A stretch of DNA of 64,000 nucleotides, from the NCBI GenBank assembly GCA_951406725.2, contig OX597815.1:131316001-131380000 (forward strand), given 5' to 3'. The stretch is from Octopus vulgaris (Eukaryota). Positions 1 through 59,334 of this stretch are shown here, piece by piece. The position numbers were made by a program, and so were the translations under genes. Under the pieces are notes generated by a model that saw only the letters and a program-made list of their open reading frames with translations, had not been told where the DNA came from and made no database searches. Every line of letters starts with the position of its first letter. Position 1 is the first letter of the stretch.

Positions 1-1112
1 ACATGAAAACAAGAAAGCATCATACTCAGTAACAAAACAGGCAAAGGAATACAACAAATTTCGGAATTAGAGAGACATACAAGAAACAGGCACAGAAAAA
101 GCTAAGCGCATGAAAACCCGTGCCAAAACTGCGGCCTTAGATATTCTAAATGATAAATGGCAAGAAAAACCTCTGTATGGCAAATACCCAAAGAGAGCGA
201 ATAATGCAGATGTTGACAAACCCCTGACCCATCAATGGCTAATGGCCTCTGGCTTAAAATCTGAAACAGAGGGGTTTATCATAGCAGCTCAAGATCAATG
301 CCTACCAACAAGAAACTACCAGGCCAACATATTAAAGATCGGCAGTAGCCCAACATGTTGTGTATGTCAGCAACAAAATGAAACCATTGATCATGTGGTC
401 TCCAAGTGCAGTCTTCTAGCGCCTACAGAGTATCTCAACAGGCATGATAGAGCTGCACAATATATTCACTGGGTAATCTTCAAAAACCTGGATTTGCTCC
501 ATGAAAAAACTGGTGGGAACACAAACCACCCCCAGTCCTTGAAAATGACCACATCCCACTCCTCTGGAACTTCACCATTGAAACTGACAGAAAGATAGAT
601 GCAAATATGCCAGACATCATATTGAAAGACTTCAGACAAAGAACATGCCTCTTCATTGATATGACTGTCCCAATCGATATAAACGTATCTGTCAAGACCT
701 ACCAAAAACTGAGCAAATATAAAGATCTTGAATTAGAAATCAGCAAAATGTGGAACCTGAAGACTAAAACAATACCTGTTGTCATAGGTGCCCTGGGAAT
801 GATAGCAAAAGGGGCTGTTTGCTCCCTAACTCAGATACCAGGAAACCCAAAAATGACAGAAATTCAAAAGATAGTGCTCATGGGAACTGCTCATATCCTA
901 CGCAAAATACTTTCTATGTAATCTCAAGTTTTAAAACAAACATAATTTTCGTGTTTTTTTTTTTTTGACATTCACTAGTACAACACAAAATACAAAACCA
1001 AATATATGGCACACTAGGCATAACACCATCACGAACTTCCAACCTGTTGCCACTTGAGGTCTCTGGGTGAGACTTGGAGCCAACTTGTACAAATATAAAG
1101 CAAAAGTCAAAC
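1..1112 (+). mobile_element. R4/Dong-like non-LTR retrotransposon, 3' part (CCHC finger + restriction-like endonuclease), frameshifted
   Basis: ORFs 110-598 and 607-921 carry CCVC...ETIDHVVSKC, YLNRHD, PDII, KLSKYKDLELEI and IPVVIGALG; the 3' UTR runs directly into (AAT)n. Confidence 0.85.
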
Positions 1113-12887: not shown

Positions 12888-14839
12888 TCGCTTACGCATA
12901 CGTAGGGTTTGTCAGTCACATACGAGAGTGAACACTTTCAAGATGTGCTTGGAAGCCGTCTTGAATTAAAGAACCGTTGAAGGCGCGACTGCAAAGTAGG
13001 CATTTGTCTGTTGCGGTCGCGCCGAATGATTCACTTAACTGTGAGAATTGTTGTTTTGCTGAACGTGTCTCGATACCAAAATTTGGAAAATTTATGAATT
13101 CGTGGAGAAATTTTTGTGTGCTGCGTCGGCAAACTGGAGCACCTGTATTCTTGTAGATCAGCTTAGTGGCGGAATTGTGTTGCCGTGAATTACATTGTCT
13201 TCCTTCATTCTTTTTCTCTGCTCTGTCTTTCTGTTCTTTTTTGTGTTTTCATTGGACTTTTTATTTGGAACATTTTGGATTTTGTATTGAACATTTTTCT
13301 TTATTTTATTTTATTTTATTTTTCTTTATTTTTTTCTTTCGCAAGCATGGCAGCAAAAATAAAAATAATATTGTGACCCTCAAGCAGTAGGAAAAACTTT
13401 AATGAGAGAACGGTGGTGTTGAGGACATATTCTAAGTCCCTCGACACCATCACTGTGTTCTCTCAGGCAGACATTGAATAGGAGTTGGCAGAAGTATGAG
13501 GGCTGCCACCCTGAATAGAGCCTGAATAGATAGAAGACACTATACTTCGGGGTCGGGGTGGCAGCGGAGCCAAGCAGTTTAATGTCAAAATTCTACCTGC
13601 GGCTGATTGGGTGGGGTCGAAGGAAGTTTTGACCCTGTGGACCCAATCAGCCAATAATCTGTTTTTTCCAGATTTTTTGAGGATGGCCGGGTGCAGGTAA
13701 CCGGTGATTCTTGAGGGTCACCCCCTACCCAGGTGTCATCGGTGCCTAGAGCCTGGCCATATAAAGAAAAACTGTCCTCATGAACAAAGCAAATTCCTGG
13801 AGCAGTTGATGGAGACTTCTGTAGAAGAAGGAACAAAGGCGGCCGAGGAGGTGGAGGACTCCTCAAAGAAGGGCCGCAAGATGAAGGTGAGCAATAATGG
13901 GTGCTCACCGAAGGATCCTAGGGATGAGGCGAATCTCCCGGTCACGGAAGAGACGCACCCTCTCCCAGTTAAGAAGAAAAACTGAGGAAGAGGAAGAAAA
14001 ACGGGACATTGCCGGCAGTCGGTGACATAGCACCGGAATGTCCCGGAACCTTGGCGGGAATTGTGCCGCTAACGGTAGAATTGACTACCTCGACCCTGGA
14101 GGAAGACAAAGAGGTAGAAAAGGTAGTGGGAAAACACTATAAGGGAATATCTTTAACTTTCACACAAGAACCCGAATGGCCTCCGCAGTTAGCTGTGGAG
14201 GCCATAACGTTGCCCGTGATACGTAGGCTGGAGGGACTCAATGAGGAATATCGCTTGTGGGCGGACGCCGCCGACTCGGAACCCGCCTTGGTTTTAAATA
14301 AGGCGTGGGTGATGGCGGAGTATACGGGCACAATCGATGTTGGGGAGGAAAACTGACAATAGGTTGAAAAGCCTCAGTGTTATAATGATTAAGTGTGTAA
14401 TAGGCTCAACGCCTCAATTTGTAAATGGACTATTAAGTCCAAAAATTGTAAAAAGGGAAGTAAGAGTTTCAATGCTTCGGTTTGATTTTTTGTGTAAAAA
14501 TAATGTTTTAATTTGTAAATGGACTACTGAGTCCAATAATTGCAAAAACGGAAGTAAGAGGTTCAAGAAATCCGTTTGTTTTTTTGTGTTAAAAATAATA
14601 ATGTTTCAATTTGTAAATGGACTATTAAGTCCAATAATTGTAAAACTAAAGTAAGCGGTTCAATAAAATGGTTTGTTTTTTGTGTAAAAAAATAATGTTT
14701 GAGAGAAGCAAAAAACCGGCGGGTGTTTTTTGTCTTCCATTAATATCATTTTATTTCATCAATCATCTCATCAATGTTTCTTTCCAGCCCACAAGCTACT
14801 CTGTATCATGCCTTTATGGCAAACTATTTTTAAATAAAT
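12888..14839 (+). mobile_element. Tx1/L1-like ORF1-only non-autonomous retroelement inserted in a family B SINE
   Basis: Disrupted ORF1 13347-14356 with CHRCLEPGHIKKNC knuckle; AATAAA at 14833; TSD TAGC(T/C)TGCTTACC at 12875-12887 and 14840-14852; SINE head 12853-12887 resumes at 14840-14977. Confidence 0.75.
14415..14700 (+). repeat. ~96-bp tandem repeat x3 in the element 3' UTR
   Basis: AATTTGTAAATGGACTA(T/C)T(A/G)AGTCCAA recurs near 14415, 14510 and 14607. Confidence 0.9.
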
Positions 14840-15012: not shown

Positions 15013-15183
15013 AAAAGGTAGTGGGAAAACAATATAAGGGAATATCTTTAACTTTCACACAGGAACCCGAATGGCCTCCGCAGATAGCTGTGGAGGCCAT
15101 AACGTTGCCCGTGATACGTAGGCTGGAGGGACTCAATGAGGAATATCGCTTGTGGGCGGACGACGCCGACTCGGAACCCGCCT
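15013..15183 (+). repeat. Near-identical duplicate of ORF1 segment ~14118-14288
   Basis: Only about 4 mismatches over ~170 bp. Confidence 0.9.
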
Positions 15184-15899
15184 CCCTCCTTCTCCTCCTC
15201 TCTCTCCTCCTCCTCCTCTCTCATCTCCTCCCCTCGCTTCTCTCCCCCTCTCACTATCCCCTAAACCCCCACTCTACCCCAACCCCCAGCCGAACCCACA
15301 CCCCACCTGAGCTTTCCCCACTCTCGCCTCCCCCACCTCCCCACATCACACTACACTACTCCATACAACATTACACATCACATCACAACACATCACCCAC
15401 AGCACACCGCCCAGACACCCATCCCCACATCTTTACACCTACACATACATACACATATCACATCACAACACACCACCCACACACCCATCCCCACATATCC
15501 ACACCCACACATACATACACACACACGTCCAAACCACCAGCCCTCTTTCACACGCCCATACATACTCTCTTATACACACACGCACCTTTGTGTTGGGGCA
15601 CCTTTGTTTTGGAAGTCACTTGACCCTGTTATATACTAGTCTTACAAAGAATAAGTTATGGTGTCGATTTGCTAGACTAAATGCGGTACTGTAGCATAGC
15701 CGCAGTCAGATGACTGAAACAAGTAAAAGAACAAAAGTATTTGTGTGTGTGTGTGTGTTTGCGCGCGCACGCGCATGTTTGTATACCTGTGTCTGTAGAT
15801 GTGTGTGCGTGTGTATGTAGGTATAAGTATGTATGTGTGCGTGCGGGCGTGTCTGTGTATGTGTGCGCGTATGCGTATGTATCTGTGTGTGTGTGTGTG

Positions 15900-16669: not shown

Positions 16670-18130
16670 CGGTTTCCAACAAGGATACAAGGCTCCATCT
16701 TTGGGATGTAGTTAACACAGACAAATTTGCATTTGGAACTTGAGAAAAGTCTTGCAAATTTTTACGGTTCCACTCACAGATTGGACTTGTGATGTACGAA
16801 TCAGATGGTCGATTTCTCTTTCTGAAAATCCCAGTTTCTCCAGATGTTCCTTTAAATATTTACTAACAAAAGTTAGAGCTCCAGTTATTGGTATGAATCT
16901 GAATTCATATTCTGGAAATATAAAAGCTGGAGGTTTCGAAACAGTTGTTCAGAAATTTTTTTCTTTGATTTTCAGAGATATTTATATCTGCAGGGTAACT
17001 AACCTCTATGATGGTACATACCTTTGCTCCTCTGTCCCAAACAATATCCAGTCTGTTATGCTTACATTTGACAGAAGTTTTGATGGGAATATTCCACCAG
17101 TATTCCTTGAGTTGGTGTTTATGAATGTATTCCATAACAGAGGGATTTTCTAAGTTTATTTCAGGACAGTCTTTCTTGAGGATGGCATTGTAAATTGTTC
17201 TCGCAACAACATCGTGCCGCATAGGGAGGTAGTACCGTGACGACATTTTAGGACAGCTGCTAATCAAATGGGTACCTTGGTATTACAAGAGCGTCACTGT
17301 CTCTCTTGTTCACCAGGTACTTTGTGGCAATCTCTTGATCTAGGATTGCAAACGCATAACCTTCAAAGTGTGATGTGATGTAGTGGTCTTGTGTCCAAAT
17401 AAGGCTGCACTTCGTGTCAATTCTATTGTCTTATTCAAGCTTCCGGGCAACATACCATGCATGGTCTTTTGTTTTTTGTATGCTGAGTGCTTTCCATCAA
17501 GGTCCTCTCTGTTTTGGAGATCACCAGGAAAAGAGTGGTGTTTCTTAAAGAGTTCACTGCCAACTCGTACAATGTTGCTAACTTCACTTTTCGGGACTGC
17601 ACTAATATATTTATTTTTGCTGTTGTTGTTTAGCAGGTACTGCTTGAGTATACTATACTGTATTCGATGGCCGTCTGCACTGATTTCAAGCCTCTACCAC
17701 CTTCATTTCTTCTTAGGTAGAGCCTGTCAACATCACTGTTTCTGTAGAAGTTCCCTGTTGTTGTCGGGATTTTGCGGGTTTTGATATCTATGAAGTGGAT
17801 TTTCTCTTCAGACCAATCAAGTATCTCAAATGTTGGGATCAGCACTGATACTGCAAATGCATTGTGGGATATTCTTTTGTTGTAAGAGGAGAGTTGTGAC
17901 TGACATATTTTCCTAAGTCTAGAGTAATATTCTCGGGTCACTATATCTTTATTCACAGTGCCTTCAAATGATACATTTTCGTCTATAACTGAATATGTGC
18001 ATTTCTTTTGGCCAAATTCCATGCCTATATCAGCTGAAAATATTATTAATACCAGATGTGTTTAGGCATTGTTTACACATTTAGCATAAATCTTCAGGTC
18101 GTCTACAAAGAAATTATGAATGACATTGGC
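16670..18130 (-). mobile_element. RLE-type (R4-like) non-LTR retrotransposon, 5'-truncated, RT C-terminus + endonuclease, degenerate
   Basis: HNFFVDDLKIYA, EFGQKKC, RLYLRRNEGGRGL, YYLPMRHDVVARTIY, HNRLDIV in minus ORFs. Confidence 0.85.
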
Positions 18131-20812: not shown

Positions 20813-22089
20813 TGGGTTGTTTGGAAAGTTCGTGCCGATTTATAGTAGCTTACATTTTGACTTATTTTAGAACATGGTTGAGTCCAGAAAATAAGATTTG
20901 ACTACACCTCCATTTAGAGCATAGTTTAAGCTATCTTTTGGTGGAAGAAGGTTTATGCTCCTATAACCTGTGTTAAGTCTGTAACCCTTTAAAATGGAAG
21001 ATAAGAAAGTTCATTTTCGGCACTTGATGCCTCACAAGCAACCAAAGGGAAAATGTCTCACAAGCAACCAAAGAAATATGCACAGTTTACGGTGATGTTG
21101 CTTTATCCGAAAGAACTGTATGGAAGTGGTTTGCGAGGTTTCGAGCTGGAGATTGTAGCCTTATTGATAAAGAGCGATCAGGCAGACTATCCACTACAGC
21201 TGACCAAATCAAGTCATTAATTGGAATTAACCCACATTGCACAACCCAAGAATTGGCAGAAAGCTTCAACCAATCAAAATCCGTCGTTCATGAGCACCTG
21301 GTAAAGCTTGGGTACACAAATTGCTACGATGTTTGGGTACCACATTAGTTGAGTGAGAAGAACCTTTTGGATCGCATTTCCATCTGTGATTCGCTTTATA
21401 AATGGAACGAAAACACGCATTTTTTAAAGCAAATTGTGACAAGTGATGAGAAATGGATTATCTAACGAAATGTTCAGAGAAAGCGATCCTGAAGTAAGCG
21501 GCATGAGCCACCCTTAGCCACCCAAAAGCGGGTCTTCACCCTAAAAATGTCTTGCTTTGTCTCTGGTGGTATTAGAAAGGAATTCTGTACTACGGGCTTC
21601 TCCCAAGTGACCAGACAATTAATTCTGAGAAGTACTGCACACAACTGGACGAGTTAAAAGCAGAAATTCAAGAGAAACGTCCAGAATTGGTCAATAGTAA
21701 GGGTGTTATTTTCCAACATGATAATGCAAGACTGTGCGTTTCTTTGGGAACCAGACAAAAATTGCTGCAGCTCGGATGGGATGTGTTACCTCACACCCCA
21801 TATTCACCAGATATTGCTCCTTCGGATTTCCACTTATACAGTTCTCTGCAGAATAGTCTTAATGGTAAACATTTCAATTACTTGGGTGACGTAAAAAGAT
21901 ACCTTGATGAATTCTTTGCCATGAAACCACCTCAGTTCTGAGAAGAGAGTATTTTCAAGTTAGAGGAAAGATGGAGATGCATTGTACAACAAAATGGTTC
22001 ATATTTGGTTGATTAAAAATGTAAAGGCAAATATTTATTGACCGTTTTCTGTCCTTTAAAAATCAGCACGAACTTTCCGGACAACCCAA
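20812..22089 (+). mobile_element. Full-length inactive mariner transposon
   Basis: TIRs TTGGGTTGTTTGGAAAGTTCGTGCCGATTT / AATCAGCACGAACTTTCCGGACAACCCAA, TA on both sides; transposase ~20994-22016 with WVPH, IVTSDEKWI, HDNAR, YSPDIAPSDFHL, broken by stops and frameshifts. Confidence 0.95.
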
Positions 22090-24663: not shown

Positions 24664-25460
24664 ATGATTTAAGCTGAATTATCGGAGGAGACTGCAATGA
24701 TAACTAAATCATTTAAAACCAAGCAGAGGTCGATCGGAGTCGAAAAAGGGGTCAATATTGATCTCAGTGTCATCATGTGATTATCCAAAGTGTCGATGTT
24801 CCACCCGAATCAATATTTCCTGTGATTTAAGCCCAATTATCGGAGGAGACTGCAATGATAACTAAACCATTTTAAACCAATCAAAGGTCGATCGGAGCCG
24901 AAAAAGTGGTCAATATTGATCTCAGTAGTTATCCAGGGTGTCGATATTCCACCCGTATCAATATATCTTGTGATTTAAGCCCAATTATCGACGGAGACTG
25001 CAGTGATAAGTAAACCATTTTAAACCAATCAGAGGTCGATCGGGTTGGTTTAAAATCTTTATCGACCAATTAGAGGTCGATCGGAGCCGATAAAGTGGTC
25101 AATTTTGATCTCAGTAGTTATCCATGGTGTCGATATTCCACCTGTATCAATATATCTTGTGATTTAAGCCCAATTATCGAAGGACACTGCAGTGATAAGT
25201 AAACCATTTTAAACCAATCAGAGGTCGATCGGAGCCGATAAAGTGGTCAATATTGATCTCAGTGGTTATCCATGGTGTCGATATTCCACCTATATCAATA
25301 TATCTTGTGATTTAAGCCCAATTATCGACGGAGACTGCAGTGATAACTAAACTATTTTAAACCAATCAGAGGACGATCGGAGTCGACAAAATGGTCAATA
25401 TTGATCTCAGTATTATCATGTGGCTATCCAAGTTTTTGATATTCCACCCGTATCAATATA
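24664..25460. repeat. Tandem repeat, 5 units of ~148-189 bp
   Basis: TGATTTAAGC restarts at 24664, 24823, 24971, 25160 and 25308. Confidence 0.95.
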
Positions 25461-31860: not shown

Positions 31861-34570
31861 CATGAGTTGTTTGTTGTCAGTGTGCGCATGCTTTGTTGTG
31901 TGTATCACTCACGGAGATAGCCGGGTAGCCGGTGAAAAAGTTGCCCAGCTGTAAGGTAAGGCTTTTGTTTTTTTGGGGTCCAGTGGGGGGTTTGTTGTTT
32001 GTGGTAAAATTTTTACAAGCAAGGAGTCCTCACTGGATTCTGGACTCTGGCCTGCCTGCAGTTGGGATAAGACTGTTCACATTAAGTGAATATTTTTCTC
32101 ATTGTAAGAAGTGTTGTTTGGTGGGCGTGTCTAGCCACCAAAATTTGTGAAAATTTTATAAAATTCGTTTGAAGGATTTTCCTGTGTTCCTGCTTCTGGA
32201 CCCTGAGTACATCATTGGAGTACCAAGTTGTGGAAAACCTGTCGGCCAGGATTACCAGAGGCCGGAAGAGTATTAGCCGTGATTTGAATCGTCTTCCTTC
32301 GCTCTTTTTCTCTGCTCAGTCTTTCTGTTCTTTTTGTTTTGTGTTTTTGACTCTGTTTAGACTTTTTGGTTGAGCATTTTTTGGACTGTCCTTTCTTTTC
32401 TGCAAGCATGGAAAAAAAAGCTAAACACTGCGTCGGAGTGGGAGATTGTAGTTTCCAAGCAGTGGGTAAAAGAGTTCAACGAGAGAACGGTGGTGTTGAG
32501 GACGTATTCCAAGTCTCTCGACACTATCACTGTGTTCTCTCAAATTGAAATTGAGAAAGAGTTAGCAGAATATCTGCTAGCTATTAAGTTTATTGCAAGG
32601 GGTGTCAAATATGCAACGGTGTGCTTGCTATTTGACACCCCTGAGGAGGCTCCCAATTTTGCGAGTCAGCCCTTAGAAGGGAAAAAAATTCTGTTTCTTC
32701 CCCCATATGGTAGGAAGAATTTAACAAGATCTTGGGTATGTGGGCTGCTACCCGGCATAGAACCCGAGTGGATAGAAGACACCATCCGCCGGAGTCTAGG
32801 TGGCAGCGGAGCCAAGCTCCTTATGTTAAAATTCTGACTGCGGCTGATTGGGTGAGGTCGAAAACAGTTTTGACTCTGTGGACCAATCAGCCAATGATCT
32901 GGTTTTTCCAGATTTTTTGAGGACGGCCTGTTCTAAATATCCGGGGATTCTTGAGGGACGACCCCCCCCCCCCAAGTGTCACCTATGCCTGGAAACAGGC
33001 CACATTAAAAAGAACTGTCTCCAGGACCAAGGTAAGGTCCTGGAGCTGTTAATAAAAGTGGCGCACCCCACTCCCCCATTGGAAGGAGAGATGGATGGAG
33101 TTAAGGAGGTGGAGACCTCATCGAAAAAAGGAAAGAAAAGAAAGAAGATGGTAACAATGGTTGCCCACCGAACGGCCCTAACGCTGCAGGAGGGGAGGAA
33201 GATCCTCCGGATAAAGCGAAGGTACCACATCCTCCCGTAGCAAAGGAGAGAAAAAGAAAAAAGAAAAATAACGGGACATTTTCGGCGGTTGATTGTTCAC
33301 TGCCGGCATGCCCTGAAACTTTGTCGGTGGTAAGTGTGCCACTGACAGAGAAAACTGTGGCCCCTCCCAGAGCGATGAGAGATGATTTTGTTATCTTCTC
33401 CTATAAAGGAGGGGCAATACAGAGTTTCTTAAGGAGGCTAGAGGGCCGGAGGGAAAAGCCCATTCCCTGGACTGAAGACCCGGATTGGCCTCCACAGGTG
33501 ACTACTTGGAAGTCGATATGTTCAGGGTGATGGACTCCTTCCCGAAGAACCAGTTTAAGTTCGCCTTCTAGGGCGTCGTCAGAGCTAGGATGCTTGCTCT
33601 GAAGAACAAAGGAGTTGGAACCGCCCGAGAGGCCCGAGTGGTGGAGGTGCAACGGGGCAACAAAGCCACGATTAGGTCTCTGAAAGATGAACAAGGGCGT
33701 TAATTACTTGAACTCGAAGGGATGTGTGAGGACTTTCAACAACACTTTGCCCGGCAATGTTCTCAAGGAGAATCTGTGCGTCGACGAGGAACACTTGACC
33801 CACCTGTTCAGGACAACTTTCGGGCTGGAACCTATGGAAATTCACTAGAAATCCCTGGCCTGGCAGTGCTATCGGGAAGCATTTCCCGTTTGGGATAAGC
33901 TCTACAAGCACGGTTCGAGATATTTGCCTGAGATGCGTGTCAGAGCGACGAAACTGTTCTGCATGCATAAGTGGACCTGTGGGCTTATGCCGCACTGCTG
34001 CTGTCACGTGTGAGGCGAATTCGGTTGTCGACCGACTCTATCGTAAAAATTGCTCTGCCACCATCCCTTAGCCGAGAAGGCAAGGCAATTTTCGTCGTAC
34101 TAGTGGCTATGGTGAAAGAATGTGCGTGGTGGACTCGAGCGAAAGGTTTAGAGACAAACACTTTCCTCTCTGGCCATTCGTTCATCAACTTTTTCAAGTA
34201 CCACTTGAAAAGGAAGGTGAAAATAGAAAGGAAAGTTTTGTCTCATGAAAGATTCAATAAAAGGTGGGTGAATGTAGCAAAGGTGGTATGCGCGAATGAC
34301 GAAACCACTTTGAGTATGATCTTGTAAATCCAAAAAAGAGGGAGAGAGTACTTTGCTCTCATGTGTTTTTTTTCCTCTCTGCCTGAGGTTACCGAGATCT
34401 TTTTTCGAAGGCTTTCCTTTCCACGGATAAACCTAATCTGTTTTTTACATTTTTACTTTGTTCTGTGATACATGATACCTTTTGATCGGATTTTTTTCTT
34501 TTTCTTTCGAAAAGACAAGCTCTACATTGTATTTTGTCCTCTCTGTGTTCAGCCCTGTGTGGCTAATAAA
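31861..34570 (+). mobile_element. Tx1/L1-like element: ORF1 (CCHC) + ORF2 C-terminal remnant, no EN/RT detected
   Basis: ORF1 from 32408 homologous to 13347 (EFNERTVVLRTYSKSLDTITVFSQ; CHLCLETGHIKKNC); 33971-34327 resembles Tx1 ORF2 C-terminus; AATAAA at 34565 then (TATC)n; preceded by SINE B head 31812-31860. Confidence 0.75.
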
Positions 34571-36584: not shown

Positions 36585-36677
36585 ACCCACACGATTCTAT
36601 GTGTAAATCAGACCATCCATACAGACACGTACATACGTACATACATACACATGTACATACACACCCACAAACACACC

Positions 36678-36717
<40 letters not shown>

Positions 36718-36911
36718 CATACAAACATATACATATACCCACAGATATACATAAACACGTGGGTACATATACAAGCATATGCATACTCTCACATGCAAAC
36801 ACATACACATACACATATATATACACCCATATATATAACTGCATATATATTTGTACACACATTAGTGGTAATTTAATTGCAGAGTGAACAGAGTAATTCC
36901 AAATTATATAA

Positions 36912-41609: not shown

Positions 41610-42940
41610 TGTGTCCAGAAAGTCTCTTTACAATTTCCAAAATTTATTACAATGGCAATTGATGGAATATGTTTATGAGATTTGTTCTATGTTCATCAAA
41701 GTTTTTAAGCACATTGCATTTGTGTTTTTCAGGTACCTTGTTGATGGAAAAGGGGTTTAGTTAATTGAAACCCTAAGAAAGTGGCTATTCATCAAGTAAA
41801 GGCACAATGTCTTCGTGGCTATCGTGGTTTATTGATAGAAAATCGGACACGCAGAATTAACAAAACTACAGGATTAAGTATGAGAGACGTACACCATCAA
41901 GTCAGTCAATTCGTTCATAGCACAAGAAATTTATAGAAACAGGAAAAGTGTTGGGTAAAGGGAGGGGTGGACGACCAAAATTGTATGAGAAAAACATCGA
42001 TCGTGAAGAACTAGCCTTTACTAGTTCTTCTATAAATTCATACTTACTGCTGCCAGACAGTTACAACTACCATGTTCAACAGTGCATAAAGTCCTACACA
42101 AGAACTTGCAACTGCACGCTTACAAAGTGTAACACTTATAGGCATTCGAACCAAATGATAAACAAAAACGGAAAGACTTTGTAGTCAACATACTGGAACA
42201 AATTTCTGAGGATGCAGTGTTCTTCAGCCGAGTTTGTTTAGGTGATGAGGCAACTTGCATGTTTCAGGAAAACTGAATACATGTAATGTGGGATTTGGGG
42301 ATCAGAATAATCCATGTGACTAGAGAACCTCATCGGGATAGTCCAAATTGGAATGTCTGGTGTGGGATGATGTGCAATCGAATCATTGGTCCATTTTTCT
42401 TCACATAGAGATCAAATTCTGCAAATGTTCACCTTGAACTTTTGACTGAATATGCGGTGTCACAACTGGATGACCTTTAATCAGCCATGGTTTTCCAGCA
42501 GGATTGTGCACCACCGCATTGGGGACTGCGTGTTGGCGACTTCCTCAATCAAACGTTTCCAGACCGGTGGAGTGGAAGGAATGAACCAGTTCCCTGGCCA
42601 CCTCGTTGCCCGGATATCACTCCCCTGGACATTTTTCTATGGGGTTATGTTAAACACATTATGTATCGAACTAAGACACATGACATCGAACGACCTGAGT
42701 CAAAGGATCACTCATGCCATTGCCACCATTGATAAAACTATGCTACAGCGAACATGGCAAGAAACTGATTATCGTTTTGATGTGCTTCGTGCAACTAATA
42801 GTACCCATATAGCGAGCTATTAAATGAGGAAAAACAGACTTCAATATCTTCTCATTTTGTAATAATTTTTATAGATTTATCTACTTATCTGTTTTAGTAA
42901 ATAACTTTTTTAAATTGCAAAATGACTTTGTATGTATATA
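41605..42940 (+). mobile_element. Tc1/mariner-superfamily (DUF4817-type) transposon, degenerate
   Basis: FQQDCAPPH, WPPRCPDITPLDIFLWGYVK; decayed TIRs AAAGTCTCTTTACAATTT / AAATTGCAAAATGACTTT. Confidence 0.85.
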
Positions 42941-51086: not shown

Positions 51087-52203
51087 CTTTTATGTATGTA
51101 TGCATCATGTATGTCTGTTAGTACGTTTGTTTGTAGGAATAAATCTATGTGTATTTACACTTGCAGATGTGTGTCTGTACACTTGCATCTATGCCTGTAC
51201 GTTTACATGTATGGCGTTCCTTTTATGTATTTGTGTTCTTTCTTGAAGTGGACCCATTTTCTAACAAAACTTCTATCTCTAAAATTTGGATAACAACAAT
51301 GATTATTGCTGCATACTGATCCTTATGTATGTATGAAAGTTTGTAAATATGTGTGCAACTATGTGACAATGTAGGAATGTTTGTATGTTGTGTATGTATA
51401 TGTGCAAATATTATGCATGAAGATTTATATGTGTATATGTATGTGAATGTGAGTGTGGGTGTATGCGTGTGTACTTATGTGTGTGTGTAGCGTTATAGGT
51501 GAATAAATTGATGTAAGGAGGTTATATACAATGGCATTACTTTTTGCGTAGCAGTTTCAACATTAAGTGTTATTTAGAATTGTATACATCACCAAATCTG
51601 TTTGATCGATCAACCTTGCTTTTAGGAGTAAACACATGCTAACATTTGTCTGTTTCCTATGTAGATTGTGACAATAGAATGATAATCTAGCTACAGTGTA
51701 TGGATTTTGTACAAATAGTTGTAAATGGCATGTTTTCAGACAAAAACCCTGTAAGCTATAGGAAACTAGGTATCTGTAATTTTAGATTTAAACTGGATCA
51801 ATAATTTGACCGTTAGTTGAGAAAGAGAGTTTATACATTCGAGTGTAACTCATGTATGTGGAACATGACAAGAATGACGGAAAACATGGTTACTTTTGAA
51901 TAAGCTTCTGGGTTACTTCGTAAAACTAAAATCTTATATTATCACAGAGTATTGACAGATGACTTCAACATATTGAAGAATTATTGTTCTTGTCCACAGA
52001 AACGTTGAAAAGTACGAATGTGAATAAAGATCTATGTATGTATGTATGTATGTATGTATGTATGTATGTATGTATGTATGTATGTATGTATGTATGTATG
52101 TATGTATGTATGTATGTATGTCATTCCAAAATGTAACTACATGTGGATTGTTGGCGATTTTTTCCCTCCGTTTTCCTTTTCTCTTGGACTTACCCTTGTC
52201 TCC

Positions 52204-52240
52204 TGTTTCTGAAGAGGAGCTTTGCTCGAAACGTAAAACA
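52204..52240 (+). ncRNA. Intact minimal type I hammerhead ribozyme
   Basis: TGTTT CTGAAGA G GAGC TTT GCTC GAA ACGT A AAACA; all core nucleotides and stems present; inside insert ~52121-52356 between (TATG)n. Confidence 0.9.
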
Positions 52241-53289
52241 ACTTTTCTGTTCTTCCCTGAGCGTCTGTTAATACTTTGCATGTACCACGTAGTCGCATTT
52301 TTGTTGTTTTCTTCTTGTGTTTTTCCCTCGTCTTTTTTTTGTGTGGAGGCATTAGGTATGTATGTATGTATGTAACAGAAAGGAACTTAAAATTCAGGGC
52401 TGACTGCATTTGCTAAATCTGACTTTCCCCTCGCAAAAAATTAATTTGAGAGCTTATTTTAAAATTTGGTAGAAGAAAGTGACAGTAAATGATATACATA
52501 GGTCTTAGCCTTTCTAAATTATTTACCGAATTTAACCGAGTTCTGAGTAACAGAGATTAAATGACACAAGTGAATTTGTCCAGTGTTGTAGATATAGTTT
52601 GCGGAAAGTTTACTATTTATGCAGCGTAAAGTACAAACGGATATCTACTTTTGTTGTACGTATGTCTGTGTAAGTGGATGTGATTTTCTCAAGTTATAAA
52701 GATGATTAATATCATCTATATCAGTTTGTACACGTGTGCGCACTCATACACATACGCGTACAAACACATACACGCCTACAAACACAGACAGACAGACATA
52801 CACACACACATACAAAGATACTTAGGTAAGATTCGTCCAGAATTGGTCCAGGTATCGCCCAACTAAATAGCACTATTTAATGATGTTTCATATAACAGTC
52901 ATACTTTCAGTACCATAGCCCATTAGAATATAGAGTTATGATTTGCAGAGGTATATTCGAGGGTAGGTGATTTATCTGAAATTTCTTGGAGATATTAATC
53001 CAGGGCCAGAGTGAATGCTCTATCGTTCCCTTCTTTTATGTGTGTTGGCATTGACGTTAAAAAGAGAAGAGTCAGATGAGATGAAATAGCTTCCTCTTCG
53101 TATTGCGGTGTGATGAGAGCATCATTTCTGTGTGGGTCTGCGTGCCCGTGTGTACATACCTGGAGTATAATATCAAGAACTGACGAACTAATGATTGTTT
53201 TACTTTATTCTGATCTCAATACTAAATACCCAGCCAGTCCCGCCGTCCTACCTCTTGAATATGCCTAGATTCTAACGAATCCTGTAATT

Positions 53290-57747: not shown

Positions 57748-59035
57748 CGAGGGACGTTCAATAAGTAATGCGTCTGACCCACTTGCAGTTGTTTGATCTA
57801 GCTGAAATTTTGCATGTGCAATCATTTATATCTCTATAGAGTAAGTGGCAAATTACAGCTCTGAATTAATTGTGGTTTCTTGATTTACAGGTGTTTGAAC
57901 CGAGTCAAGTGTGAAATGGAGCCTGTTGAGTGTCGAGCAGTGATCCGGTTTTTGTATTTGAAAGGACGCACACCACGGGAGACTTTTGATGAAATGAAAG
58001 TAACTTATGGTGATGATGCCCCATCATATGACCCTGTAAAACGCTGGCATCGTGAATCCAAACATGGTCGGAACTCTGTGGAAACAGCTCCCAGATCTGG
58101 TCGCCCCCTTCTGCCATTGATGAGGCATCTGTCCGTGAAGTTGAGGCTGCCATTTTGGAAGATCGACGCATAATTATTCGCCAAATAGCCCATGAGGTCA
58201 AGATTAGTACCGCGTCTGTGGAAACTATCATTCATGACCATTTGCATATGCAAAAGGTGTCTGCCAGATGGATTCCCAGGCTGCTCACGCCTTTCCAGAA
58301 GCAAGAACGCGTCGAGTGCTCGAGGGTGAATTTGCAGATGTGACAAGATGAGTCAAAATTTTTCAAAAGACTGATTACACAGGATGAAACCTGGGTCCAT
58401 CACGATGATCCAGAGACCAAATCCCAGTCAATGTAGTGGAAGCACCGTGACTCACCCCCTCCAAAGAAGGCAAGGGTGCAGCCCTCCGCTGGCAAGGTCA
58501 TGCTCACAGTCTTCTGGGACCTGGACGGAGTAGTGATGACAGATTTCCTGGCAAAGGGTACCACAATTGCAGGAGCCTATTATGCTTCACTTTTGAGGAA
58601 ATTAAGAGAAGTTATCAAAATCAAGAGGCGGGGCAAGATCAGCAAAGGCATCCTCCTCCTGCAGGACAACGCTCCGGTCCACAACTCGCTTGTCGCCAGA
58701 TCAGAAGCACAGGCATATGGCTATGAACTCCTCCCCATCCCCCTACTTTCCTGACCTTGCACCCTCTGATTTTCACCTCTTCCCAATCATGAAGTTGTTT
58801 TTGAAAGGAAAGCGTTTCCCAGATGATGTAGCCTTGATTTCTGAAGTCACGTTGAGGTTGGAGGACCAAGCTGGTTTCTTCTACAAAAACGGTCTCCAGA
58901 GCCGCATTAAACGATGGGAGAAATGCGTAACTCTGGGTGGTTCCTATGTAAAAAAAGACTAATAACTGTGCCAAGTTTCGTTGCTCTACTGCTATGGGAA
59001 GTGGGTCAGGGGCATTACTTATTGAACGCCCCTCG
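57748..59035 (+). mobile_element. Full-length inactive mariner (irritans/Himar1-like)
   Basis: TIRs CGAGGGACGTTCAATAAGTAATGCGTCTGACCCACTT / AAGTGGGTCAGGGGCATTACTTATTGAACGCCCCTCG, TA TSD; transposase 57916-58962 with RSGRP, WIPRLL, DETWVH, QDNAPVH, PDLAPSDFHLF. Confidence 0.95.
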
Positions 59036-59334
59036 TAGTTGCCAGTTTTCCCTTGTTGGCGAAGGAAGCCGGTATGACAATAATATATCTGTCTCCATCT
59101 ACTGGTTGCATATCCATGAGGTTTTGTAAATTCCATTTTGTTAATTGTATACATTACAACTATTACATAATTGCGACCTCCCATAAACAGCTGTCGAGTT
59201 AAAAAAAAATACATATTTTCCCTTTAGTTTTCTGTATTTTTTGTACTCTTTGTCAAAACAAATCTATTTGTGAATATATAAATGTATCTATGATTGTACA
59301 TGTGTGGTTATCTTCTGGATGTATTTAGTCTCTG

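Follow-up and report, generated by a model that had tools for sequence, protein, structure and literature searches.

The window analysed here, a 64-kb stretch of the Octopus vulgaris genome, carries at 52204-52240 of the plus strand a motif reading TGTTT CTGAAGA G GAGC TTT GCTC GAAA CG TA AAACA, whose parts follow the canonical order of a type I hammerhead (Table 1). The conserved core bases, the GUA site with its predicted cut after 52235, the 4-bp stem II and the ACGT palindrome listed by the first-pass annotation are all found in the sequence, and its assignment to the minimal hammerheads, here of type I, is borne out by the core, the stems, the order of the parts and a shuffle test. The 5-bp stem I that it described holds for this copy, but the fifth pair is polymorphic across the family. 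The extra base G52216 and the setting in a terminal repeat of a Penelope-like element (PLE) were missed.

Table 1. Features of the hammerhead-bearing repeat, in positions of the window.
Feature	Position	Strand	Basis
(TATG)n run, 5′ side, likely insertion target	52033..52121		Tandem Repeats Finder, sequence
5′ boundary motif (TCATTCCAAAATGT), where most subfamily copies begin; putative RNA 5′ end/transcription start	52120..52135	+	
Solo pseudo-LTR (pLTR; 3′ end piece) of a Neptune-type Penelope-like retroelement, ~235 bp; probable assignment	52122..52356	+	Extensions of sibling copies
Type I minimal hammerhead motif	52204..52240	+	Sequence; descriptor against shuffles; stem covariation across the genome's hammerhead families
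Stem I, TGTTT/AAACA, 5 bp	52204-52208/52236-52240	+	Sequence
Core C3-A9, CTGAAGA	52209-52215	+	Sequence
Extra unpaired base between A9 and G10.1; G here, A in most family copies	52216	+	
Stem II GAGC/GCTC, 4 bp, with 3-nt loop TTT	52217-52227	+	Sequence
G12-A15.1, GAAA	52228-52231	+	Sequence
ACGT palindrome, predicted intermolecular stem III	52231-52234	+	Sequence; same architecture described for PLE min-HHRs in PMC4209133
GUA triplet	predicted cut after 52235	+	Sequence
About 120 nt kept past the cut, with decayed GGATTAA-type terminus; putative internal RT initiation site	52236..52356	+	
Shorter (TATG)n run, 3′ side	52357-52373		Sequence

The genome around the motif (2.8 Gb in 227 contigs) is rich in microsatellites, which swamped repeat finding within the window. 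Several other repeats can nevertheless be recognized. Fragments of non-LTR retrotransposons lie at 71-921 (+), where a zf-RVT match covers 71-595 (E 1.8e-6) and an (ATA)n run follows at 1115-1283, and at 16905-18061 (-); we take both fragments to resemble R4/Dong-type elements. Mariner/Tc1-type transposase fragments occur at 21576-21941 (Pfam Transposase_1, E 3e-11), 42446-42823 (no Pfam match) and 58639-59223. There is also a tandem repeat at 24780-25440, with a unit of about 148 bp and one internal inverted piece, in which no hammerhead or Rfam match was found. Finally, related gag-like ORF1 fragments are seen at 13973-14356, 15015-15200 and 32361-33530, with a CxxC-H-C knuckle at 32848-33240; the three pieces scanned gave no Pfam match.

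Within the window, 52204-52240 is the sole match to a minimal-hammerhead descriptor, and any match at all was obtained in only 1 of 300 dinucleotide-block shuffles. No second or partner hammerhead was found by the descriptor in the 64 kb. Ten further loose CTGAnGA...GAAA matches in the window failed the stem tests and were rejected, as was a rewired (non-circularly permuted) hammerhead, given the canonical type I order of the parts. The Rfam hammerhead families gave no match in the whole window at the gathering score and none over 51900-52600 at E<=10. The minimum-energy fold of the isolated 37-mer is not the hammerhead (z = -0.31), as expected for a monomer that lacks an intramolecular stem III.

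Genome-wide, the motif is far from isolated. Exact copies of core and stem II number about 13,900, of which 4609 are of the CTGA type and 9261 of the CCGA type; the search pattern comprised the core, the GAGC/GCTC stem, the palindrome and NUH, and reversed-pattern controls gave 0. A pattern barring A at stem II position 2 yielded 1059 more matches, compared to 15 in controls. For covariation we aligned 16 motifs, namely the window copy, two young elements and 13 of 30 loci from the barred-A pattern, picked by eye as distinct families; the other 17, which resemble mutated GAGC-family copies, were omitted. Stem II is 86% paired in this alignment and three of its four pairs change on both sides. 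The covariation score was reached by none of 500 shuffles and by no slid register, a control that is inflated by the relatedness of the motifs and their selection by hand. G10.1-C11.1 is GC in all 16 motifs, although for 13 of these the search pattern allowed nothing else. In stem I, decayed copies included, pairing reaches just 61%, and the fifth pair (AAACA after the cut) is found in 14 of 30 aligned copies, young copies having 4 bp. A chance match to a short consensus, in whose favour one could cite the silence of Rfam and a monomer fold no better than that of shuffles, has practically no probability left, for besides the rarity of descriptor matches in shuffles it is already refuted by the copy counts and the covariation.

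The motif has all the sequence features of the min-HHR class that Cervera and de la Peña described in the pLTRs of metazoan PLEs (PMC4209133), and by its sequence context it is itself located in a PLE pLTR. As far as that paper describes them, these ribozymes share with ours the type I order and a helix I of 4-5 bp, the extra base between positions 9 and 10.1 followed by G10.1-C11.1, the palindromic 15.2-16.2 (CG) without loop 3, and an occurrence mostly as solitary copies from truncated PLEs. The tick, limpet and sea urchin rows of its supplement have the same layout. There are also differences: helix II consists of 4 bp and a 3-nt loop, compared to 7-8 bp in the Schistosoma min-HHRs (PMC4209133), and, relative to the published min-HHRs, the window copy has G at the extra position and its most abundant sister subfamilies carry U4C. 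Secondary matches (L014, L037) reveal in addition a related pLTR family whose core is CTGTAGA (A6U) and whose stem II loop has 4 nt.

The U4C core (CCGACGA) is carried by the young subfamilies and by the most abundant ones, in which the ORF is intact (for example L086, L088, L089, L093 and L095), and L088-type elements, also with an intact ORF, have a U-U mismatch in stem I besides. In a viroid, U4C is reported to lower activity in vitro and yet to suffice in vivo (PMC3088659). The two changes would fit a tolerance of low ribozyme activity. The U4 of the window copy does not look like CpG decay of a CCGA ancestor: we rejected this origin for the window subfamily because T is found in 54 of 59 copies (C in 4) and the neighbouring CpGs are mostly kept. 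Among the genomic copies, core columns are as variable as non-core columns, which fits neutral decay after insertion.

A DNA search of the genome with the unit returned 4973 first-look candidates, indicating a high-copy dispersed repeat, whose copies related to that of the window mostly adjoin (TA)n-type runs. Sequence further upstream is common to 5 of 30 sibling loci. Some siblings (L036, L038, L055/L058) run on through a CA-rich tract into fragments of a GIY-YIG endonuclease and of RT; on L058 the GIY-YIG match (PF01541) has an E of 3.4e-5, above the cut-off. A search with the RT piece gave 6095 candidates, and among the 150 that were scored some have frames of 800-1009 aa. The longer siblings are 39-86% identical to the intact 1009-aa frame (tblastn). 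At 5 of 20 long loci hammerhead repeats flank the ORF on both sides, and the direct repeats around the ORF in those five measure 245-1495 bp.

The relatives L085-L093 have a single ORF with RT (DKG, YIDD) and GIY-YIG at the C terminus. Pfam sees little of it: on L089 the matches to RT (E 7e-4) and GIY-YIG are weak and below the curated cut-off, and the whole 1009-aa frame matches no Pfam family at E 0.001. A PDB sequence search with the RT-EN region gave 0 matches at E 0.1, and a homologue search returned 797 relatives, the best 42-56% identical, without clade names. The frame does contain a CX2-5CxxC linker, a feature shared with Nematis, as CSRSRCNTC at residue 877 of the L089 frame. By eye it is closer to the Neptune1_Ap row than to the Nematis rows in the supplement of Craig et al.; the placement in the Neptune clade thus relies on motifs and a comparison by eye rather than on a tree. 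Neptune-clade PLEs, with Neptune1_Ap the nearest, are described by Craig et al. (2021, PMC8557442) with an RT bearing DKG, the CX2-5CxxC linker, a C-terminal GIY-YIG, partial tandems and microsatellite targets, as here, while the long CA-rich 3′ UTR sets our elements apart from those described there. In intact copies (L085-L104) this 3′ UTR measures about 2.5-3 kb from the end of the ORF to the hammerhead. Pieces of it occur in the window near 15775-15890 and 36625-36837, and tblastn found no ORF pieces of the element in the window.

The continuity of the siblings into GIY-YIG and RT, the two-repeat loci and the likeness to Neptune1_Ap lead us to read the window copy as the solo pLTR of a Neptune-type PLE. 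A Naiad PLE, which has an N-terminal endonuclease, DKA and no canonical hammerhead, was rejected on account of the C-terminal endonuclease, the DKG and the canonical order. A non-LTR retrozyme in the form of a tandem array was likewise rejected, as there is a single unit and no second hammerhead in the window. A broader version of the same idea, that the unit of about 220 bp represents a non-autonomous element, SINE- or retrozyme-like, that has master copies of its own, would account for the uniform length and for the common 5′ boundary in two subfamilies. Animal non-LTR retrozymes, as reported in bioRxiv 10.64898/2026.07.22.740005, resemble our unit in being short and non-coding, with a type I hammerhead related to those of PLE pLTRs, from which they are said there to derive. 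These retrozymes, though, form tandem arrays, while here a single dispersed end piece is found, contiguous with PLE coding sequence in longer copies. The sequence continues unbroken into the 3′ UTR, endonuclease and RT in those copies, and within each subfamily one terminal sequence is common to short and long copies. We therefore regard an independent element as quite improbable and keep to the solo pLTR of a PLE.

The first-pass annotation called the motif fully intact and the best experimental entry point. Neither description survives comparison with its siblings. Among the 40 scored of the 4973 candidates, the window copy is 83-89% identical to its best siblings, a divergence from which we conclude that it is an old insertion. 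It would have decayed neutrally since it inserted, its core looking complete because it would not yet have been struck there. More importantly, the extra position is A in 29 of the 29 best-matching siblings, and exact matches genome-wide comprise 317 copies of the A form and 10 of the G form. Out of 70 copies sampled by a downstream pattern, the 59 with an ungapped motif have A in 51, G in 4 (the window copy among them) and T in 4. Three natural copies (L006, L012, L029) differ from the 37-mer solely by A at this base.

Stem II of the 37-mer is predicted to form with a probability of 0.88 in the A-form siblings compared to 0.37 in the G form of the window. With 12-nt flanks the values are 0.85-0.86 and 0.07, as the G lengthens a competing hairpin with the upstream CUCCU; with 30-nt flanks the gap is lost in flank variation (0.52 for the G form; 0.35, 0.66 and 0.43 for siblings). 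Downstream, the sequence CTGAGC at 52257-52262, about 20 nt past the cut, is conserved at the homologous place in all three subfamilies. Its TGAGC is able to form pairs with stem II's 3′ strand, with probabilities of 0.01-0.82 across six units, and no covarying partner was seen by eye in families with other stem II sequences. Without such a partner we make no claim that TGAGC is an off-switch of the ribozyme.

The need for dimers that had been expected of this motif agrees with what is published on the class. A Schistosoma min-HHR on its own did not cleave, and only weak cleavage was obtained from constructs with a dimer or trimer (Cervera and de la Peña 2014, PMC4209133), and a review also expects dimer dependence (PMC6765202); by analogy the same would apply here. 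In our calculations, which take no account of tertiary contacts, the best alternative dimer is more stable than the active one by about 9 kcal/mol, in the G form as well as in the A form. Small PLE hammerheads reportedly cleave as dimers, a result ascribed to Lunse et al. in 2016.

Could the window copy still be a competent, dimer-dependent ribozyme that suffers little harm from its G? No canonical core base is missing, the G10.1-C11.1 pair, the palindrome and the GUA are in place, the computed active dimer (-10.3 kcal/mol) compares well with that of the A-form siblings (-9.9), and other bases are found at the extra position in a few published min-HHRs and in one local motif. The preference for alternative dimers in either form, the lowered stem II probability of the monomer and the lack of a second hammerhead in the 64-kb window argue against it, as does the CChMVd hammerhead, in which A-to-G at the extra position is strongly detrimental according to a review (PMC3705267). 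We consider full competence rather unlikely; on the predicted folds, the rare A-to-G change likely makes this copy a poorer cutter than its siblings. Judged by its sequence, then, the copy is complete by consensus and not the best test substrate. Taken together, 52204-52240 is very probably a minimal type I hammerhead in a Neptune-type solo pLTR of about 235 bp, a decayed copy predicted to be at best a weak cutter, and if it does cut, likely only through RNA pairing at the ACGU palindrome or with a protein of the element.

Next, we investigated where copies of the repeat begin and end relative to the cut. Copies were sampled by patterns 3′ of the cut, with no hammerhead required, from the window's (old) subfamily (70 of 78), a young subfamily (90 of 531) and a third subfamily (30 of 1238); leaving one reference copy out of each of the first two gives n = 69, 89 and 30. 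On the 3′ side, copies stretch about 100-120 nt beyond the cut and terminate in a GGATTAA-type end that is joined to TA-type repeats, the first microsatellite after the cut coming at a median of about 101 nt in young and 109 nt in old copies. Tandem junctions have the same 3′ end point. Ends past the cut imply a template that was uncut at that hammerhead, or circular.

On the 5′ side, 39 of 69 copies of the window subfamily and 45 of 89 of the young one have their end 101-116 nt upstream of the cut, counts that are lower bounds, with several internal deletions scored as ends. The window copy begins at -116. Of the copies that reach this cluster, 39 of 42 (window) and 45 of 54 (young) stop within its 16 nt, compared to 0 of 3 and 2 of 9 over the 64 nt that follow (Fisher p = 1e-3 and 5e-4, respectively, with bins that were set once the data had been seen). 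The third subfamily shows the cluster weakly: just 3 of its 30 copies stop at the corresponding motif (-122), and 18 run on past -350. Starts within 2 nt of the cut are rare in all three (1 of 69, 3 of 89 and 0 of 30; about 2% overall), and TA microhomology there could explain the few that exist. A conserved TTTCAnnATGT is seen at the 5′-end cluster, 101-122 nt before the cut (L135-L224, L105-L134, L225-L264, L295-L324). At the start proposed for the window subfamily the sequence TCATTY resembles the initiator consensus TCAKTY. An intron or splice-site origin of the boundary was rejected, there being no AG acceptor at it. In four young copies and one old copy (L179, L190, L145, L139, L111) an end fragment has been copied again, as if RT had hit the end of its template and re-primed; a fifth young match in this repeat test looks incidental.

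These ends suggest that the solo pLTRs may be run-off copies of uncut RNA. The parent RNA would be transcribed from a promoter within the repeat, with its start about 110 nt before the cut (near -113), and RT, with a nick in a TA-rich microsatellite as its primer, would start internally on the uncut RNA, some 100 nt past the hammerhead. Where it began on the first repeat, RT would run off the RNA 5′ end and leave a solo repeat of about 215-235 bp. Such a scheme fits the spread of subfamilies with a weakened hammerhead (U4C, the stem I U-U mismatch).

There are partial precedents. For the green anole's Poseidon element PAc, Frangieh et al. (2024, PMC11167929) describe genomic ends downstream of the hammerhead cut and AT-rich targets, as found here, and the likeness of the ends past the cut is consistent with internal RT initiation on uncut RNA. 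In PAc, RT starts internally and uses mainly uncut RNA as its substrate, and the hammerhead does not cut unless protein is present (PMC11167929). PAc is, however, of a different clade, and its ORF starts inside the hammerhead, compared to several hundred nt downstream here. In Penelope of D. virilis, the transcription start lies within the pLTR (Schostak et al. 2008, PMC2377424), upstream of the hammerhead and separated from it by a distance comparable in order to that of our 5′-end cluster; that start was mapped and is followed by an intron, while ours is deduced from copy ends alone.

The serious rival is that the clustered 5′ ends reflect ordinary 5′ truncation guided by TA/TG microhomology, or a pause of RT, with no fixed RNA end. 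The exact 5′ ends do coincide with AT/TG microhomology to the flanking microsatellites, lying on ATGT, ATAT and ATCT words beside (TA)n, and the third subfamily mostly continues through the motif. Neither truncation nor a pause sits easily with the concentration of stops within 16 nt and their scarcity in the following 64 nt, which in the young subfamily also contain a CATG word, or with the re-copied end fragments in the five copies. We give this rival a real but minority chance. Run-off has its own difficulties, as its generality is weakened by the third subfamily, which mostly reads through, and by the upstream repeats of full-length elements, which at 410-1495 bp reach well beyond the proposed start. 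It is accordingly a tentative reading, to which we give slightly less than an even chance, that run-off cDNAs account for most copies of these Neptune elements, made on a transcript that starts about 113 nt before the cut and stays uncut, with RT initiating internally on its first pLTR.

Neither the hammerhead of this family nor the run-off model was found described in the literature on octopus and Penelope-like elements that we searched, which included few subscription papers. In itself the motif is nothing unusual, belonging as it does to a published class of ribozymes and having many thousands of fellow copies. The natural pair of A and G forms that differ at one base nonetheless has a practical use in tests of the extra nucleotide in PLE hammerheads. 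Should solo pLTRs indeed be products of run-off on uncut RNA, copy ends would read out the RNA starts of PLEs genome-wide. In that case the octopus genome would record an RNA 5′ end thousands of times, cleavage would seldom precede copying, and the run-off reading would bear on the purpose of the hammerheads in PLEs.
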